Shown piece by piece: positions 23,986-51,261 of a DNA stretch of 64,000 nucleotides; position 1 is the stretch's first letter; the number at the start of each line of letters is the position of its first letter. The translations under genes and the position numbers were made by a program. The stretch covers positions 992,001 to 1,056,000 of the forward strand of contig CAVVPN010000011.1 of assembly GCA_963750165.1 (NCBI GenBank), written 5' to 3'. A model generated the notes under the pieces. The model was not told the DNA's origin. It saw nothing but the letters and a program-made list of their open reading frames with translations, and ran no database searches. Source of the stretch: an uncultured Gemmataceae bacterium (GTDB taxonomy: Bacteria; Planctomycetota; Planctomycetia; Gemmatales; Gemmataceae).

Positions 23986-24276
23986 ATGACGGACAACACG
24001 GCCAAGAAACTGTTGCGCAGGATGCTCCGCTCGTTCACGGCAGGAAGAGTCCTTCACCTCCTTGCCCACCTCCACGTCGAGGCAGCAAAGGAGGCGCGGC
24101 AAAACGGAAACGAGTTGCTCTACATGCAACTCGCGCTGATCGAGGCTGGGCTGATCGTCGCCGGGTACGGGGTCGATGCGGCTTGGCCTGATCAGGAGTA
24201 CGCGGTCCTGTTCGCTGAACGAAAAACTCAGCCCAATCATACGAGGAGGAATCATGTCCGAAAAGCAAGTAACTGA
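23986..24276 (+). CDS. Small hypothetical protein preceding ruvB-like gene
   Basis: 96-aa ORF overlapping the RuvB-like start. Confidence 0.5.
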   Translation: MTDNTAKKLLRRMLRSFTAGRVLHLLAHLHVEAAKEARQNGNELLYMQLALIEAGLIVAGYGVDAAWPDQEYAVLFAERKTQPNHTRRNHVRKASN

Positions 24277-25237
24277 CATCAACGACGTTGCTCCTTCGGC
24301 GCTTTCGCACCTGATCGGGCAGAAGAGCGTCGTCGAGCAGGTGCGCGTTGCGCTCGACGCGGCCCATCAGGACGGCAAGAAGTTCGACCACGCTCTTTTG
24401 GTCGGGCCGAGCGGCGTAGGCAAAACGCAGACGGCCAAGGTCATCGCCGCCGAGATGGCAACTGAACTGCACGAGATGTTGGGGCAGTCGATCACCTGCC
24501 CCGCCGACTTCAACTCGGTGCTCCTCGCCGCCAAGGACCGCGACATCCTGTTCGTGGACGAGTGCCATGAACTTCCCAAGGAGTTTCAGACGGCGCTGTA
24601 CCTCGCCCTCGACCAGCGAAAGCTGGTCCTTGCTGGCGGTCGGTCGGGGCGAGGGGTCCAGAGCATCCCGGTGCGCGACTTTACCCTCTTGCTGGCGACG
24701 ACCGACGAGTTCGGCGTTTTGGCACCCCTCGCGCAACGGGTTCGTCTCGTCCTGCGCTTCGACTTCTACTCGGTCGAAGAGTTGACCACCGTGCTTCTAC
24801 AGCGAGGTCGGGCGCTCGGCTGGTCCGTCCACGAGGAACTGCTGCCGCTGATCGCACAACGCTCACGCGGGACGCCTCGCCTCGCGCTACGGCTGCTGTC
24901 CTCCTGTCGGCGTGTCTGTCGCAGTGAAGGCGAGAACACGATCACAGGCGAGCACCTGCACCGGGCCTGCGACCTTGAACAGATTGACGAACTCGGCCTC
25001 GGGCCGACCGAGCAGCAGTACCTCGGGCTACTCGCCGAGGGGACCAGCCGCCTGAACGTCATCGCGTCCTTGCTGGGTTTGCCGTCGCGCACCGTAAGCC
25101 ATGTGACCGAGAGTTTCTTGCTCCGCGCCGGACTGATCATCAAAGACGATCAAGGAAGGCGTCAATTGACGGCGAAGGGCCGTGGGCATCTGGCCGCGAA
25201 GCGACCCCTCGTGGCTTCCTTGGAGAAACTGTCATGA
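24254..25237 (+). CDS. ruvB: RuvB-like Holliday junction branch-migration AAA+ ATPase (mobile-element paralogue)
   Basis: GAGGAGG RBS before ATG 24254. Motifs IGQ, DHALLVGPSGVGKT, ILFVDECH, FTLLLATT, FYSVEEL, IAQRSRGTPRLALRLL, IDELGL and C-terminal GR..T.KG. Confidence 0.88.
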   Translation: MSEKQVTDINDVAPSALSHLIGQKSVVEQVRVALDAAHQDGKKFDHALLVGPSGVGKTQTAKVIAAEMATELHEMLGQSITCPADFNSVLLAAKDRDILFVDECHELPKEFQTALYLALDQRKLVLAGGRSGRGVQSIPVRDFTLLLATTDEFGVLAPLAQRVRLVLRFDFYSVEELTTVLLQRGRALGWSVHEELLPLIAQRSRGTPRLALRLLSSCRRVCRSEGENTITGEHLHRACDLEQIDELGLGPTEQQYLGLLAEGTSRLNVIASLLGLPSRTVSHVTESFLLRAGLIIKDDQGRRQLTAKGRGHLAAKRPLVASLEKLS

Positions 25238-25722
25238 CCGTGATCAACCAGAATCCTGACAACCTGAAAACCGCTGTGAGCGTGAAGGACATGGCGGCGA
25301 TGTGCGGCCTCTCGCGCCAGCGGTTCGCCCAACTCGTCAAGGCCGGGGTCTTCCCCACGCCGCTATACGACACGGCGACTCGCCGCCCCTTCTACGCCGA
25401 GGACATGCAGAAAGTCTGTTTGGAGGTTCGTCGGCGCAACTTCGGGATCAACGGCAAGGCCGTCCTGTTCTACGCGCGTCGAGCGGGTCTGGTTGTGGCC
25501 CCTCCGAAGGGGTCAAAGTCACCAAAGGACGACCCGAACAGCGAGATCCTCGGCGGGTTGAAGGCGCTCGGCCTGACGACCGTGACGGCCAGCCTTGTCG
25601 CCGAGGCGCTGAAGGCGCTCTTCCCCAAGGGAACGGCCTCCACGGATCAGGCCGAGGTCGTCCGGGCCGTGTTCATCCACCTGCGCGGAAAGAATACGGC
25701 GGTAAATGCGGGGAGTAAATAG
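25234..25722 (+). CDS. AlpA/MerR-like HTH fused to a RuvA domain III-like C-terminal helical domain
   Basis: N-terminus AVSVKDMAAMCGLSRQRFAQLVKAGVFPTP, a basic linker, then EILGGLKALGL...VAEAL...AEVVRAVFIHL. ATGA overlap with ruvB. Confidence 0.6.
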   Translation: MTVINQNPDNLKTAVSVKDMAAMCGLSRQRFAQLVKAGVFPTPLYDTATRRPFYAEDMQKVCLEVRRRNFGINGKAVLFYARRAGLVVAPPKGSKSPKDDPNSEILGGLKALGLTTVTASLVAEALKALFPKGTASTDQAEVVRAVFIHLRGKNTAVNAGSK

Positions 25723-25735
25723 CCCTTTACTCCCC
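25710..25735. repeat. Perfect 10-bp inverted repeat with a 6-bp spacer; candidate recombinase core site
   Basis: GGGGAGTAAA-TAGCCC-TTTACTCCCC. Confidence 0.7.
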
Positions 25736-25796
25736 AGTAGAGGGCGGTCGGTGGCAAATTCGTGCAACATTCGAGACTCAATCAAGGAGCTATCCC

Positions 25797-26708
25797 ATGA
25801 AGAATTCGTCTGTAAATGTTTTCGAGGGCATCCCGGTCGGAACGGAAGAGGCGGGCCTCGTCGTCCGGTTCCTCGACGGCCACGACTTCGCCACTGGCAC
25901 TCGGCGGCTCATCATGCTTGATGTGCGCCAGTTCGCCAAGTGGTTCGCCGACGCCAATCGAGAGCCATTCATTGTGAATAGAGTGACCGTGCGCGATGTC
26001 GTCGATTTCCGCGAGTACCTGCGCCGCGAGAAGGAGCAGGCGGTCGCCACCGTGAACCGAACCCTCGTCCTGCTGCGGGGTTTCCTCGGTTGGCTGGTTG
26101 ATCAAGGCCACATCCCCTCGAACCCGGCCAAGCAGGTCAAGGAGCTTCGCCGTGTCCAACTCGCTCCGAAGGGTCTGGATCGCAGTCAGGTGCGGCGACT
26201 GTTACGCGAAGTCGATCTGCGGAAGGACATTCGTGCTGCCGCGATCTTCTCGTTGTTCCTGTTCACTGGCGGTCGCGTCGGCGATCTGGTCTATCTCGAA
26301 CTCCAAGACGTGATGATCACCGAGCGGAGCGGCAACGTGGTCTATCGTTTCGGCAAGGGTGGCAAGGAGCGGTCGGTGCCGCTGCCTCTTCCCGCGCGGC
26401 GAGTGCTGCAAGCGTACCTCGACACGCGGCCCCCAGTCGAGTCGCGCCGCGTCTTCATCGGCGAGCGCGGGCCACTCACCGACCGGGGCATGAGGGCGCT
26501 CCTCAACAAGTACAGCGCCATCATCGGCGTGAAAATGTTCCCGCACCTGTTGCGGCATACGATGGCGCACGAGTTTCTCGCCGACAACAACAACGATCTG
26601 GTCGCGCTGGCACAGATCCTCGGACACGAAAGCCTGTCCACGACTGCCCGCTACGTCCAGCGCACCCAGCAGGAGTTGAATGACGCGACGGATCGCCTCG
26701 ACTACTGA
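25797..26708 (+). CDS. XerC/D-like tyrosine recombinase
   Basis: TGGRVGDL, GKGGKERSVP, PHLLRH, LGHES and TTARY catalytic set. AAGGAG RBS. Confidence 0.92.
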   Translation: MKNSSVNVFEGIPVGTEEAGLVVRFLDGHDFATGTRRLIMLDVRQFAKWFADANREPFIVNRVTVRDVVDFREYLRREKEQAVATVNRTLVLLRGFLGWLVDQGHIPSNPAKQVKELRRVQLAPKGLDRSQVRRLLREVDLRKDIRAAAIFSLFLFTGGRVGDLVYLELQDVMITERSGNVVYRFGKGGKERSVPLPLPARRVLQAYLDTRPPVESRRVFIGERGPLTDRGMRALLNKYSAIIGVKMFPHLLRHTMAHEFLADNNNDLVALAQILGHESLSTTARYVQRTQQELNDATDRLDY

Positions 26709-26732
26709 CACACTACAAGAACGGAGGTAGCC

Positions 26733-27050
26733 ATGACCACTTATGAGATCAACCAGTTGATCGTTCTGGTCGAAAAACACCGTGTTGAAGCTCAGTCAGC
26801 AGCAGAAGCCGTCGTGAAGGTGTTCGATGGTGAGTCATAGCTGATTGGCATCGAAATCGCCGACCTCTGCCACGAGCGCGGCTTGCCCGCTGAAGATTAT
26901 CCGGCTCTAGTGGCCGAACTGCGGCAGGCGGGAATCATGACGAACGAAACCGTTATTCCCTCCATCAGCAGCATCGAGAAATTCGGAGACGCCCGCTTCA
27001 CCATGCCGAAGGACGCCGAAGTGGCCTTCAGTTTCGAGCCTGCGGATTAA
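26733..27050 (+). pseudogene. Small hypothetical gene with an in-frame TAG at 26838
   Basis: GGAGG RBS and ATG at 26733. The frame stays open after the TAG until TAA at 27050. Confidence 0.45.
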
Positions 27051-27070
27051 AGGCGGGACGCCAAGCTTGG

Positions 27071-28580
27071 CAGTCGCACTTTTCCGAGTGCTCAAACCGC
27101 GAGATTTACGCAGTTTTTCAGCGCTTCGATGAGTTTCAGGAGTTCCGTTGCATCGGCCGACTTGGGTTTAATTAGGGCGTTCAAAGTCGCCCGCCGCAAC
27201 ACGGCAACCATATGACGCAACGACCATTCACTCTCCCAGGGTCCCATCACTTGGCGCAATTCCTCCGCCTCCGGCAACTGCCGACCGGCGGTAAGATACC
27301 ACACCATCACGACGCTCTGCAACGACCACACCCACGGCGCCACCTTCTCCACCGCTTCCCGACTGTAGTGTTGTGGCGCCTCGAGGTCCAGCACCTGTTT
27401 GCTCGCCCGGAACAGTACCTCAATGGACCAGCGCCAGGCGAACTGCGTAATCACCCACCCCACGTCCGCACGCACGTCGGTCGTGAACAGGTAGGCATCG
27501 TCCAACTTCCCGTCCGGGTCGCGCACCACCACCACCTGCACCGGCCGCAACCCCAACACCCGCGGCCACACCGCCCGGTAGGCGAACGCCCGCAGGACGC
27601 GCTGCTCCCCGTAGACGGTCACCGTCACCGCCTGCCACACCCAGTCCCCGGTGGCCACGCGCTTACGGTCGGCCTTGGCGGCGGCTGCTTTGGGGTTGGG
27701 CAGACGCGGCCCCTTCTGCGCCTTGCGGCCGCGCCGGCCGGGCTTGGCCTGAGGCAGACGCGGGTCGTACACGGCCGCGTCGCCGCGCAACCGGCCGACG
27801 AAGGTCACGCGCTCGTCCAGGTCCGCCAGCAGCGCTTGGGCCGCGTAAGCGCCGTCGGCCACCAGGGTAAAGCGCCGGCCGGGGAACCAGGCCAGCACTT
27901 CGGCGAGCAGCGCGCGCGCCAGCAGTGGGCAGGACGGCTGCGCCTGGCCGGGCCGGTGCAACCGGGCCAGCAAGGGCAACGCCAGGATCGGGGCGTTCGC
28001 GAAGGGCAGGCAGACGGCGACGGCGACGACCACCCAGTTGTGCCCCGCGGCCGTGGCGGTGCGTTTGCGGGTCGAGGCGACGGCATCGCGGAACCAGCCG
28101 AGGCCCCAGACGTGCTTGCCGCGCTTGTGGGCCAGGGTGTCGTCCACCAACAGCGTGATGGTGCCGCCCAGGTGGAGGCGCGTCAGGATGAGGACGGCGA
28201 CGTGGTAGGCCAACCCGGTCACGGTCCAGGCGGAGCGCGCAAAGAAGTTGTAGGTGGTGTCCAGGCCGTGGCGCCGGGAATGGTCCCGCAAGTCTTGGGG
28301 TTGGGCGGTGTCGGCGACGCGACAGAGGCGGTGCTGGCCCAGGCACATCACCCAGCCGAGCACGAGTTGGCAGTGGGTGTGGAACGAGGGCAGGGTGAAG
28401 GCCGGGGCGAGGGCTTGGACGATGGGCTGGAGAGAAGCTATCATCAGCCACATGAGGGGCTCCTTCCGGCGAGTGCATGGCTTGAGAACCTATGCACAAA
28501 CTTAGGAGGAACCCCTCTCTCTTTCTGCGACAGCCCCGTGACACTATCGGTGTTCGTCTGTTCATGGAAGCGTGCGACAG
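27071..28580 (-). mobile_element. IS701-like insertion sequence
   Basis: Imperfect terminal inverted repeats CAGTCGCACTTTTCC (27071) and GGAAGCGTGCGACAG (to 28580) enclose a DDE transposase. No target duplication is visible. Confidence 0.75.
27092..28453 (-). CDS. DDE transposase (IS701-like)
   Basis: LLVDDT, VADGAY and WRWSIEVLFRASKQ motifs. Confidence 0.88.
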   Translation of the reverse strand: MWLMIASLQPIVQALAPAFTLPSFHTHCQLVLGWVMCLGQHRLCRVADTAQPQDLRDHSRRHGLDTTYNFFARSAWTVTGLAYHVAVLILTRLHLGGTITLLVDDTLAHKRGKHVWGLGWFRDAVASTRKRTATAAGHNWVVVAVAVCLPFANAPILALPLLARLHRPGQAQPSCPLLARALLAEVLAWFPGRRFTLVADGAYAAQALLADLDERVTFVGRLRGDAAVYDPRLPQAKPGRRGRKAQKGPRLPNPKAAAAKADRKRVATGDWVWQAVTVTVYGEQRVLRAFAYRAVWPRVLGLRPVQVVVVRDPDGKLDDAYLFTTDVRADVGWVITQFAWRWSIEVLFRASKQVLDLEAPQHYSREAVEKVAPWVWSLQSVVMVWYLTAGRQLPEAEELRQVMGPWESEWSLRHMVAVLRRATLNALIKPKSADATELLKLIEALKNCVNLAV

Positions 28581-28684
28581 TTCAGCAACGAGTATCAGTG
28601 AAAGAGGCGGCGGCACGGACGCCGCCGCCTCTTTCACAAATAAACCCATTTGAGACCAATAAGAAAAATGGGAAGCCATTTCCC

Positions 28685-30445
28685 ACAGCCATCTCCAGTG
28701 GTTTTCCACCATCAAATACGATCTCGCCGAGCATCCGAATCACTGAGAAGGATTTGAGCTTCATTGCTCCCGATCAGTCGTTCCATCGCGCAGGCTTGAT
28801 TGGGTTCGCCTCCAAGGGTCCGATTAACGTCCCGACGCTGATCGCCACTGATAACCAGTTGGCGACCGTGTTTGGCTACCCGCACCCTGAGTCTGGCGAT
28901 CCTTACCTCATCTACGCCGCCAAGCAATATCTGCTCGTGGGTAACGAGCTTTATGTCGTGCGCGTAGCTGACACCGATAACGTCTCCGACGAGCAGGCCC
29001 ACACCGCAAGTGTGGCTGTGCCCAGCGCCGGTGGACAGATCAGCATTCTCGCCAGCAAGGCAGGCCCCTACACCTTCGGTGTGGACTCCTTCTTCCGCTG
29101 GAGACTGAACGGCGTCCTGCACAGCAAGACGCTCGTGATGCTTGCTGGAACTTACAGCGCCGCGCAGATGGCCGAAGACCTGAACCTGCAAGTCGATCCT
29201 GAGATCGACGGCATCAGCTTCTTCTACGACCAGAGCAGCACGCACGTCGGCGTTGAAACGACATGGGCCTTCGGTCCCGACGCCTCCTTCGAGTTCGTCT
29301 CGGTGCAGGACGCCATGTACGGCGACACTGTGCTGCACGGCAACCCGACTGGTTGGGGTACGGGCATGACCAAGGCTGCGATCACTTGCAGCAACGACCG
29401 CTACCCAGCCTCTTACCAGAGCGCCGGTGAGTACGACTTCACAGGTCTGACGAACCAGAACCTCCAGATCGTCATCGACGGCACCGACAACGTGCTGATT
29501 GATAACGTCGTGCAGGTCATTGACCTTAGCTCTCTTGAGGGCTCCGAAGTCACGATTGCCACAATCGTCAATGAAATCAACCTCCAGAGCGTAGACAACG
29601 GCGGCACCCTACCGGGTGGCTGGATCGCTTCCGCCACTGGCAACAACCTGACCTTCAAGACGCTGACCACGGGTGTAGACGCCCGCTTGCTCTTGAAGCC
29701 AGACGGCACCGCTAACGGCATCTTCGGCGTCAGCAGCGTCACAGTGCTGGGCACCAGCCCGCAGGGTGACAGCGGAGACGCTGGCGTTGCGACCTACGGC
29801 ATCATCAACGGTGACGCCAACGTAGATGGGGCGACGACCTTCACGATCACGGCGGACTCCGCTGGTATCGACGGTAACGCCACGCAGGTTGTGATTGAGA
29901 ACAACGTCCGCGAAGGCAACTGGACGATGCAGATCTACAACAACGGCGGACAGGTCGAAAGCTGGGGTGGTATGGTCAAGGACCAGAACTCCTCCTTCTA
30001 TGTCGAAACCTTCCTCGCCTTGGTGTCGGACTGGATCAGAGTTACCGACAACACCGCGAACGCGGCCCCGCCGCTTGATGGAACGTACACCTTGACGGGT
30101 GGCACAGACGGTATTCCATCTGACCCCGACAAGCAGGACGCCCTGATCATCGGCAACCAGTTGGCTTACACCGGCATCTACGCCCTCTCCGAACCGGAGC
30201 AGATCGACATCGACCTGATCGCGGTTCCGGGCCACGCTTCGACCGCAGTGGTCTCGGCCTTGCTCGATCTTGCCCAGAACGTCCGTATGGACTGCTTGGC
30301 GATCATCGACCCGCCGTTCGGCCTGACGGTGCAGGAGATCGTGGATTGGCAGAACGGTAGTCACCCGCTGATAAGATCATGTGTAGCGGCGAAAGCGCGC
30401 ACCCGTCTCCTCGGCCTCGGTGATCGCTGCGTCAAGGACCGTTAG
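28685..30445 (+). pseudogene. Truncated contractile phage tail-sheath protein
   Basis: ISPSIRITEKDLS...AGLIGFASKGPINVPTLI (sheath N-terminus) and LTGGTDG...IDIDLIAVPG...CLAIIDPP (sheath central domain). No ATG at the expected start, and the similarity stops near 30370, before the C-terminal domain. Confidence 0.8.
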
Positions 30446-40809: not shown

Positions 40810-40855
40810 AGAGCGGGCGATGGGATTCGAACCCACGACGTCCAGCTTGGGAAAC
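40810..40855 (-). repeat. att core: 3' half of tRNA-Gly(CCC), copy 1
   Basis: Minus strand reads GTTTCCCAAGCTGGACGTCGTGGGTTCGAATCCCATCGCCCGCTCT (anticodon loop, T-arm, acceptor 3' strand). Identical to 62053-62098. The 5' half of the tRNA is absent. Confidence 0.9.
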
Positions 40856-48909: not shown

Positions 48910-49367
48910 GTGGCGATCTCCTTTGCGGTGGGGTACGTCGGTGCAGGTTCCTTGACGGAGTTTCCACGAGCCATTTCGCGGCGGCGCACGGCGTCCGCCA
49001 GGGTGCGAAATGTTCTGATTACCCGCAGGTTAAAAGTAAAAGTGGCGGCGTAGGATTACCCACCTCGGCGGCACGGGGGGATGGTGTCGAGGTGGCGGCA
49101 GCTGGCGCCGTGGTGCGGCTCAACGCTTGAAGGACAACTGGGCGATAAACTCCTTTTCCAATAGCCCGCAGAGGGCATGTCCCGCAATCGAGTTGCTCAA
49201 CACATCAGCTAGAAACGATCGCCAATCCAGCGGGAAGGAAGGCGAAATTGCGTCGGGATGATTTGGAAGCCAACCTAAATGGTTGATAATAGGTTGGATG
49301 GATGAGGATAATCCCATGCGGTTCTGCCTTTGTCAAGAGAAATTCCAGAATCTTTTTGGAAGTAGTT

Positions 49368-50866
49368 CTACTGTGCTACTTTCCTCTTTTCGGTCGGCCG
49401 CGCGGCCGCGGCCGACGCGGCGGGAACTGCCCGGTCGCGTTGTGCCAGTGGTAGATGCGTGCCTCCTCGTTACGCCGCAGCACTTGGCTCACGATCTCCG
49501 CGACCCGGGCCGCGCTGGGGCTCGGCTCGCGCAGCAGTTCCGTGAAGATCTGCCGCACCTGCGGCACCGTCAGCGCTGGTGTTTTTCCCCCCCAGCCGCA
49601 GCTTCTCGGTCTGCAGGAACCACAGGGCCAACAGCGACAGCGTCATGTGGTGGTGCCAGCCCACCCAGCTGCGCACCTCGTAGTGTCCCAACCCCACCTC
49701 GCCCTTGGCCTCCGCCAAGAGTTCCTCGACCCCGTGCCGCGCCCATGTACCCGCGCCACCTGCCCGCGCCGCGCCCGGTGCGCGTTGGAGAGCGTGTACC
49801 ACGTCTGCGGCTTGGGCTCGCAACTCTTGAGGATCGCCAGACGTTCGCGCGGCCCCACGCAGCCGTCCTCGTCCTTGGTCTGCACCGCCGCCAACAGCAC
49901 CTTGACCCACTGCGGCCCCTTGGCTCCGTCACGCACCTTCACCTTGCGCCACCGCCCCGCCGGCTGCCGCGCCGCCCACCGATCAACGCGCTCGAACGCC
50001 GGCAACCGCGGCCGGCCGCCGGGGCGCGCCGGCGGCGACCGCTCGGCCAGGTCACGCACCAGGGTGTTGCAGGGCACGTCCAGCACGTACCGGAGCCGCC
50101 GCTGCCGCAGGGCCGCCCGCAGTTCCGTGCAGCGGCCGAACTCGTCGTCGCCAGCCACCCAGTCCCCGGGCAGGTCGGCGCGGCGCGGTCCAGCAGTTCC
50201 AGGCCGACCCGCCACTTCTCGGCGAAGGCGACCGCCGCGGGCACAAACGTGGCGGCGCGGCGCCTGGGGTCGTGGGCCCAGTCCTGGTCCAGATAGAGCT
50301 GGGCGTCGAGCAGGGCCTTGCCGCGCGGGGCGACGTAGGCCAGGAAGACGCCGACCTGGCAGTTGTCGATCTTGCCCAACCGGCCGCACCACTGGCGGGC
50401 CACCCCACAGGAAGCCGCCCCCTTCTTGGGGAAGGCCGAGGGGTCCAGGACGAAGACGGCGTCGTCGTCGGCCAACTCCTCGGCGATGTGGCGGCGCAAC
50501 TCGCCCAGGACGGCCTGGTCGTCCCAGCCGCCGCCACCGACGAACAGTTGCAAGGGGCGGCGCTTGAGGCCGGCCAAGGTGGCGATGGGCTCGGTGGTCT
50601 TGCGCTGCAGGCCGCTGAGCTTGCCGCGCAGCACGGTCAGGGCGTGGCCGCGGTGCTCCTCTCGGTGGAACCGGGGCAGGTAGCGCTGGGCGAAGGCGGT
50701 CAACTGGTCCGCGCAGGAGCGGACGGCAGCAGCGGAGAGTTCGGCGTCGTTCAGCAGGGCCTGCGCGTCGGGGTGGTCGAGGATGTCCATGGCGGCCTCC
50801 ACAAAGATACCGCCGTTCAGTGTAGCCACCGCGTCAGCTGCCGGCTAGAATCATGTCGCACAGTAG
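49368..50866 (-). mobile_element. IS701-family insertion sequence
   Basis: Terminal inverted repeats CTACTGTGCTAC (49368) and GTCGCACAGTAG (to 50866). Confidence 0.8.
49376..50790 (-). pseudogene. IS701 transposase, frameshifted across several ORFs
   Basis: FPKKG..SCGVARQWCGRLGKIDNCQVGV, VAGDDEFG and AKGEVGLGHYEVRSWVGWHHH fall in different frames. Confidence 0.85.
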
Positions 50867-51261
50867 AAATAGGCAGCCAAATAGGCAGGAACTAAACGGG
50901 CGGGATTCGGTCGGACTCGAATCAGGAACCCTGCGAACACCAATTGTCCGTCTTTCGGATCGTAAAGGTAAGACTTCCCAACGCTAGCCCCGGTCCGGGC
51001 AAAAACGATGTCTCCTTCGCTTAGGTGGTATCTGCCGGAGTTCTCACTTTTCACAGAGACGAGATTCTCGGTGGAAAAGCCGCCGTTTTCGGTAATATCA
51101 GTTATTCGGATATAAGTAGGAAGTTTATCCGAAAAATGGCAAGCTGGCGCATTGATCCCATAATTAGGTGCGGAAGCAAGACATTCACCCAACTTGCGAA
51201 CATTCCAATTGTCTGGAATTACGCCAACATTTGTTTTTTTGAAACTCGTTTTCAATTCCAT
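50867..51261 (-). pseudogene. hsdS: Type I RM specificity subunit, truncated by IS701
   Basis: FKKTNVGVIPDNW, YIRITDI, GDIVFARTGASVGK and FAGFLIR. It ends at the IS end, and no continuation was found on the far side of the IS. Confidence 0.85.

Follow-up and report, generated by a model that had tools for sequence, protein, structure and literature searches.

RuvB is a motor that is aimed by DNA structure through its partner RuvA, whose UBA-like domain III binds the presensor-1 hairpin of RuvB and stimulates its ATPase, and FtsK drives strand exchange by XerCD one way. In RuvA, a flexible linker is followed by the C-terminal three-helix domain III (PMC9477746). The TnpI/IRS system of Tn4430 combines a single tyrosine recombinase with an adjacent core and accessory direct repeats that impose resolution selectivity (PMC2847244), and the Pseudomonas islands I23, I44 and I55 are reported to show integration at tmRNA, direct repeats, a terminal tyrosine integrase and defence cargo without transfer genes (PMC12595487). 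Here we analysed a window of 64,000 nucleotides from an uncultured Gemmataceae bacterium (GCA_963750165.1, contig CAVVPN010000011.1, positions 992,001 to 1,056,000), in which an earlier reading of the sequence alone (the original prediction) had placed a RuvB paralogue next to a possible substitute of RuvA. We found that planctomycete genomic islands carry a conserved three-gene module consisting of their own RuvB, a helix-turn-helix (HTH) adaptor and a recombinase beside a palindromic site.

The open reading frames (ORFs) and Pfam bear out the predicted gene order, with the RuvB and adaptor ORFs overlapping by ATGA and the tyrosine recombinase following. The ruvA and ruvC families, said to be missing nearby, had no match among the window ORFs scanned, and the host's own ruvC-ruvA-ruvB genes are located on contig C3. 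All three RuvB Pfam domains of the paralogue are above cut-off, and its scores are under the NCBIfam ruvB equivalog cut-offs (223 vs 282 and 210 vs 299 bits). Residues K57, D102, E103, R162 and R209, which we assign to Walker A, Walker B, the arginine finger and sensor 2, are invariant across 61 clade members. In a quick tree, for which chromosomal RuvBs were sampled from Planctomycetota only, 40 module RuvBs stood apart from 24 same-phylum chromosomal RuvBs (SH-aLRT 100) at about 1.9 changes per column, in agreement with the separate clade that had been named as a check of the original prediction. The carrier genomes G270, G315, G137 and G284 also hold a chromosomal-type RuvB (32-36% identical). 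In this assembly a frameshift at about residue 190 interrupts the host chromosomal ruvB (L065:5308-6313; G000:C3, about 1354300-1355310); it may equally well be a sequencing error or a real lesion.

Predicted structure models divide the adaptor into a MerR/excisionase-type winged helix (residues ~14-84), a basic linker and a three-helix domain similar to RuvA domain III (~102-152). The proposed excisionase-type HTH is supported by Foldseek, where RdfS, BldC, Pukovnik Xis and P2 Cox were obtained, all with E>0.01, and by Pfam, where among 117 adaptor members HTH_17 was found in 66 and AlpA in 54 at E<=0.1. The OB and helix-hairpin-helix domains of RuvA were absent from the 25 families shown for these 117 members. 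The likeness of the tail to RuvA domain III fared less clearly, since the modelled fold is compatible and Pfam, hhalign and fold searches, each weak, are all concordant, but the window adaptor itself has no RuvA_C match; judged from these models and profiles, the resemblance appears real, though the signal of any one test is weak. Conservation of the tail extends over 65 aligned members, with a G and an F invariant and an L, a P, a G and an R nearly invariant. Complex prediction with this RuvB, as envisaged originally, returned a score of 0.53 against 0.00 for the controls, which points to a weak predicted RuvB interface of the tail.

Homologs of the adaptor, mostly annotated as unnamed hypothetical proteins, numbered 265 by single-sequence search and 1,734 by profile search. 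The gene was present in 63 of 64 genome loci fetched, with RuvB directly upstream in 62 of these, a recombinase downstream in 59 and the complete RuvB-adaptor-recombinase order in 58, two of the misses being contig ends. Of 80 metagenome loci fetched with the recombinase, 53 had at least 750 bp upstream, and adaptor and RuvB were found in 50 of them. In a set of 165 distinct loci, 147 had room for RuvB ahead of the adaptor and 144 of these carried it there, while 160 of 163 had a recombinase no more than 900 bp after the adaptor; both partners were present in 92 of the 99 loci not retrieved via a recombinase query. The synteny named as a check of the original prediction is well conserved. Record titles of the loci are mostly Planctomycetota. 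Of 401 genomes in the class, 42 were found to carry the adaptor, and its distribution inside genera is patchy.

A palindrome not noted in the original prediction, with the family consensus GATAA-N6-TTATC (GTAAA-N6-TTTAC in the window), lies between the adaptor and recombinase genes, at a fixed distance before the recombinase start (mostly -72 or -83) and with 11-bp direct repeats conserved at +38 and +49 from the core. We take its inner pattern to resemble dif. The core arms change symmetrically: two-sided changes numbered 14 at pair 3 and 15 at pair 4, compared with 1.7 and 2.1, respectively, in shuffles, an excess that is inflated by the relatedness of the loci. The strong core copy occurs once in the host genome, no convincing second copy was seen within the loci, and no recombined form was found in the host genome or in the loci compared, where the site is intact and internal. 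The palindrome is a candidate recombinase site. A protelomerase target has a palindromic spacer, and this identity was rejected because the 63 different spacers of 120 distinct sites (from 129 loci) include no palindrome. The repeats are also clustered at the adaptor gene 5' end, at the RuvB/adaptor junction (12.5 vs 1.5 motifs per kb, for a motif derived from the same loci); this cluster is weak in the window itself.

The recombinase had been called XerC/D-like. Its tyrosine recombinase domains and the catalytic set R160, K187, H250, R253, H277 and Y286 (R-K-H-R-H-Y), invariant in 52 members, uphold this description in part, but it scores under the XerC and XerD cut-offs (158 vs 335 and 131 vs 330 bits) and is encoded as one recombinase per module, not as a pair. 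In the slot, 140 loci have a recombinase of type 1, 14 have type 2, 4 have type 3 and 2 have a serine recombinase, the three tyrosine types being mutually 26-28% identical. Types 1 and 2 have a core-binding domain, for which type 3 gave no Pfam match. Type 2, only 26% identical in its recombinase, has the same GATAA-N6-TTATC core at the 5' end of the gene, with the repeats upstream, whereas the palindrome of type 3, recognised by eye, is a different one. Of the 96 loci that extend 5 kb downstream, a tyrosine recombinase is present in 91; a co-directional serine resolvase is present in none of these and in three of the other five (Fisher p 7e-5, for related loci and serine queries taken from two of them). 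Resolvase domains were confirmed by Pfam in these three (L244, L248, L054), and more than one replacement is likely, because their RuvBs are mutually only 38-52% identical. The recombinase is exchangeable, being drawn from three distant tyrosine lineages and a serine resolvase, although chance insertion could also account for the serine genes. Duplicated recombinase 3' parts lie 2-6 kb downstream in L003, L005, L028 and L114, hinting at insertions into or beside the recombinase gene.

The module resides inside islands of about 71, 36 and 45 kb in the genomes G712, G509 and G595, whose ends are marked by 3' repeats of tRNA-Leu or tmRNA that measure 44, 17 and 13-15 bp, respectively. The G595 sequence becomes similar to that of its congeners again at the tmRNA end and, on the opposite side, 69 kb away. 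The host has a 64-kb stretch (C11:968834-1032813) with a 44-bp repeat at each end, the left one (C11:968834) being outside the window. This repeat occurs five times on C11 (20769, 924325, 968834, 1032813, 1054056) and once on C1, and integrases adjoin several copies; ARAGORN called no intact tRNA at the copy in the window. Repeated tRNA-like ends with integrases suggest tandem islands on C11. A terminal integrase-like gene of its own is present in every island; these genes belong to differing families and were in part recognised by eye. Apart from the triad, no gene set is common to all six triad-bearing regions compared. The cargo consists largely of restriction-modification, SNF2, SIR2 and TIR defence genes, and no relaxase, secretion, Rep or phage-structure family was found among the 126 and 103 island and flank proteins scanned. 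Action of the module recombinase as island integrase at attP was rejected, for the site is not split into attL and attR and the island ends are tRNA or tmRNA repeats with other integrases. Since the site is internal and intact, the island has a separate terminal integrase and the recombinase can be swapped, the slot is probably that of a resolvase and not of an island integrase; a recombinase with an adjacent single internal site fits a multimer or cointegrate resolution system, which would act on directly repeated sites. The coordinates of all features are collected in Table 1.

Table 1. Features of the module and its surroundings in the 64,000-nucleotide window (positions count from the first letter of the window).
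Feature	Position	Strand	Basis
RuvB paralogue, 327 aa, mobile-element clade	24254..25237	+	Pfam RuvB_N, AAA_lid_4, RuvB_C; tree; motifs
Adaptor (HTH protein), 162 aa	25234..25722	+	Structure models, fold searches, Pfam, hhalign, complex prediction
Palindromic core with 6-bp spacer, candidate recombinase site	25708..25737	.	Overlaps adaptor stop codon
Two 11-bp-period direct repeats, candidate adaptor-binding sites	25750..25771	+	Family consensus GTCNAAT; divergent in window
Tyrosine recombinase, 303 aa, core-binding and catalytic domains, likely resolvase	25797..26708	+	Pfam Phage_integrase and Phage_int_SAM_1 above cut-off
Accessory ORF, 96 aa, not core	23986..24276	+	No Pfam match
Accessory gene of shared small-gene pool, stop inside at 26838-26840, not core	26733..27050	+	Cluster C14
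44-bp repeat, by eye similar to the 3' half of a tRNA, likely right end of the 64-kb island	40810..40853	.	Repeat copies

Around the triad, a co-directional block comprises an ArdC-family gene, found by Pfam near the triad in 39 of 64 clustered sequences, and shuffled small genes. The position of the 96-aa ORF is not conserved: its homologs in L013 and L059 are about 6 kb downstream of the triad, whereas in L204 RuvB is preceded by the homolog. The downstream gene belongs to a cluster found in 11 loci, with an intact copy directly after the recombinase in L060. A multicopy insertion sequence (IS; 27066-28585) is inserted 16 bp past the last gene of the module, and a second IS lies at 49363-50871; both have near-identical copies elsewhere in the genome. 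After the first IS, a frame of about 580 aa (27212-30445) looks by eye like a phage tail-sheath fragment, with no Pfam match at E 1e-4. The ArdC gene lies downstream rather than upstream of the triad in six loci, and blocks common to L008 and L029 appear circularly permuted around it. Imperfect inverted repeats of 10-12 bp with loops of 30-70 nt precede ArdC genes (e.g., L025, L028, L142, L159, L166), and a GACACC motif recurs about 40 bp before the ArdC start codon; single-strand promoters or regulator boxes are possible. In L102 (11570-18256; G270) the genes immediately after the recombinase form an RNA-repair cluster (Hen1, Pnkp, two RlaP, ATP-grasp). C11 has related helicase-methylase defence clusters at about 952-961 kb and again at about 1539-1551 kb. 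Proteins of about 600 aa at tmRNA island ends (L225:9245-11092, L234:15150-16919) have the look of highly diverged tyrosine integrases but no Phage_integrase match, and a shorter paralogue comes after each of them. The IMG/VR contig L259 (17275-19272) combines a type 2 module with an integrase and a terminase fragment, and its island may lie in or beside a prophage.

How might these parts work together? We tentatively favour, at slightly less than an even chance, an anchored RuvB translocase that assists the resolution of island multimers in an FtsK-like manner. The winged helix would bind the 11-bp repeats, the adaptor tail would tether the RuvB ring there through its predicted interface, and the anchored motor would pull DNA while the recombinase resolves multimers of the excised island. 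Coupling could consist in the juxtaposition of two directly repeated sites or, as with FtsK and XerCD, in making strand exchange run in one direction, and with tyrosine enzymes the motor may in addition push the Holliday intermediate. The circular multimers, the action of the recombinase at the palindrome and the coupling of motor and resolution are steps that we infer. The original prediction had the adaptor recruit RuvB to the recombination site with directionality or junction migration as the purpose. Neither of the outcomes that it had named as refuting was obtained. The adaptor idea gains support from the RuvB clade, the tail fold, the weak interface and the candidate site beside the genes, while the purpose of Holliday-junction migration is weakened, because a serine resolvase replaces the tyrosine recombinase in three of the five loci lacking one. 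Serine recombinases make no Holliday junction, so strict junction migration fits these loci poorly, and an anchored translocase is favoured because it would work for both recombinase chemistries. It seems somewhat more likely than not that the docking domain of RuvA was joined to a DNA-binding domain of excisionase type; the outcome would be a new class of mobile-element machine, in which the structure-specific RuvAB motor has become a sequence-addressed translocase that licenses island resolution or replication with any plugged-in resolvase.

Alternatively, RuvB and the adaptor might form a replication or amplification device, in which iteron-like repeats and a tethered motor open or remodel an origin, and the recombinase is an independent multimer resolvase. 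The repeat cluster at the adaptor 5' end would suit an origin and is also present in L045 and L054, where the tyrosine recombinase is missing; a serine resolvase may be encoded as far as 4.4 kb from the module, an initiator beside a resolvase is the usual plasmid layout, and the islands share only the triad and gave no Rep match. However, we know of no RuvB precedent in initiation, no primase is linked to the module, a separate DnaB-N/AAA_25 protein is encoded 1.9 kb upstream in L244, and the repeats are in 11-bp phase with the core, suggesting one nucleoprotein complex. We consider this device rather unlikely.

Two further readings are quite improbable. The recombinase might be a MOB_M-type relaxase, the palindrome an origin of transfer, and RuvB with the adaptor a relaxosome motor for island mobilisation. 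The same niche is occupied by MpsAB-oriT in SGI1 (PMC6414798), 96% of MOB_M relaxases are near an integrase (bioRxiv 10.64898/2026.01.13.699239), and the frequent ArdC neighbour would fit transfer. This is countered by the core-binding domain of types 1 and 2, which MobK, TcpM and MpsA are described as lacking (PMC8152469) and type 3 did not match, by the serine resolvase that can occupy the slot, and by the carrier genomes, where the VirB4 family PF03135 was found in none of five and the coupling-protein family PF02534 in two of five, outside the islands. Equally doubtful is that palindrome and repeats are only operators for autoregulation, the HTH protein being a regulator or excisionase whose tail is vestigial and RuvB aiding ordinary homologous recombination or repair with host RuvA: the adaptor and recombinase genes do have repeats overlapping their starts, excisionases and regulators of the MerR type are the fold matches and no recombined site was found, but a vestigial tail is hard to reconcile with its conservation, RuvB and the adaptor almost never occur apart, the module RuvBs are far from the chromosomal ones, and the same core accompanies a recombinase as distant as type 2.

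If true, the anchored translocase would be an undescribed use of the repair motor RuvB, parked at a fixed DNA address, and a natural sequence-specific loader would show that RuvB can be aimed by sequence. The module would give a small three-gene system for studying how translocases impose direction on site-specific recombination, is possibly a retargetable motor, and offers a testable handle on how large defence islands without recognisable replication or transfer genes are maintained and spread. In a full-text literature search, with subscription papers and supplements outside its scope, no RuvB paralogue with an HTH-RuvA-domain-III partner or a resolvase was described.

Compared with RuvAB, the module has the full RuvB domain set and motifs, and its adaptor has a linker, as in RuvA, and a C-terminal domain modelled as three helices with a weak resemblance to domain III; unlike RuvA, the adaptor has a winged helix instead of the junction-binding domains, and the module has no ruvC, belongs to its own RuvB clade, is mobile and is additional to the host ruvCAB. 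With XerCD/dif and FtsK it shares the inner ATAA-N6-TTAT pattern, a Xer-like recombinase and the proposed activation by a hexameric translocase, whereas here one recombinase, below the XerC and XerD cut-offs, faces near-symmetric arms and a variable spacer, and the motor is RuvB, encoded next to the site. TnpI/IRS likewise has a single tyrosine recombinase, an adjacent core and direct repeats, but there the repeats are bound by the recombinase itself and the system encodes no motor, while here no conserved transposase accompanies the module. The MOB_M modules (SGI1 MpsAB, TcpM, MobK) share an internal tyrosine-recombinase-like gene, inverted and direct repeats and an island with a separate integrase; the core-binding domain of types 1 and 2, the RuvB and adaptor and the serine substitutes differ, a distinction drawn by domain content. 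The islands themselves match the class of tmRNA defence islands without transfer genes represented by I23, I44 and I55, to which the internal motor module is an extra, RuvB, resolvase and ArdC having no occurrence in PMC12595487. The parts are known, but their combination falls outside RuvAB, XerCD, island integrases and MOB_M, and the mechanism given here is a proposal.
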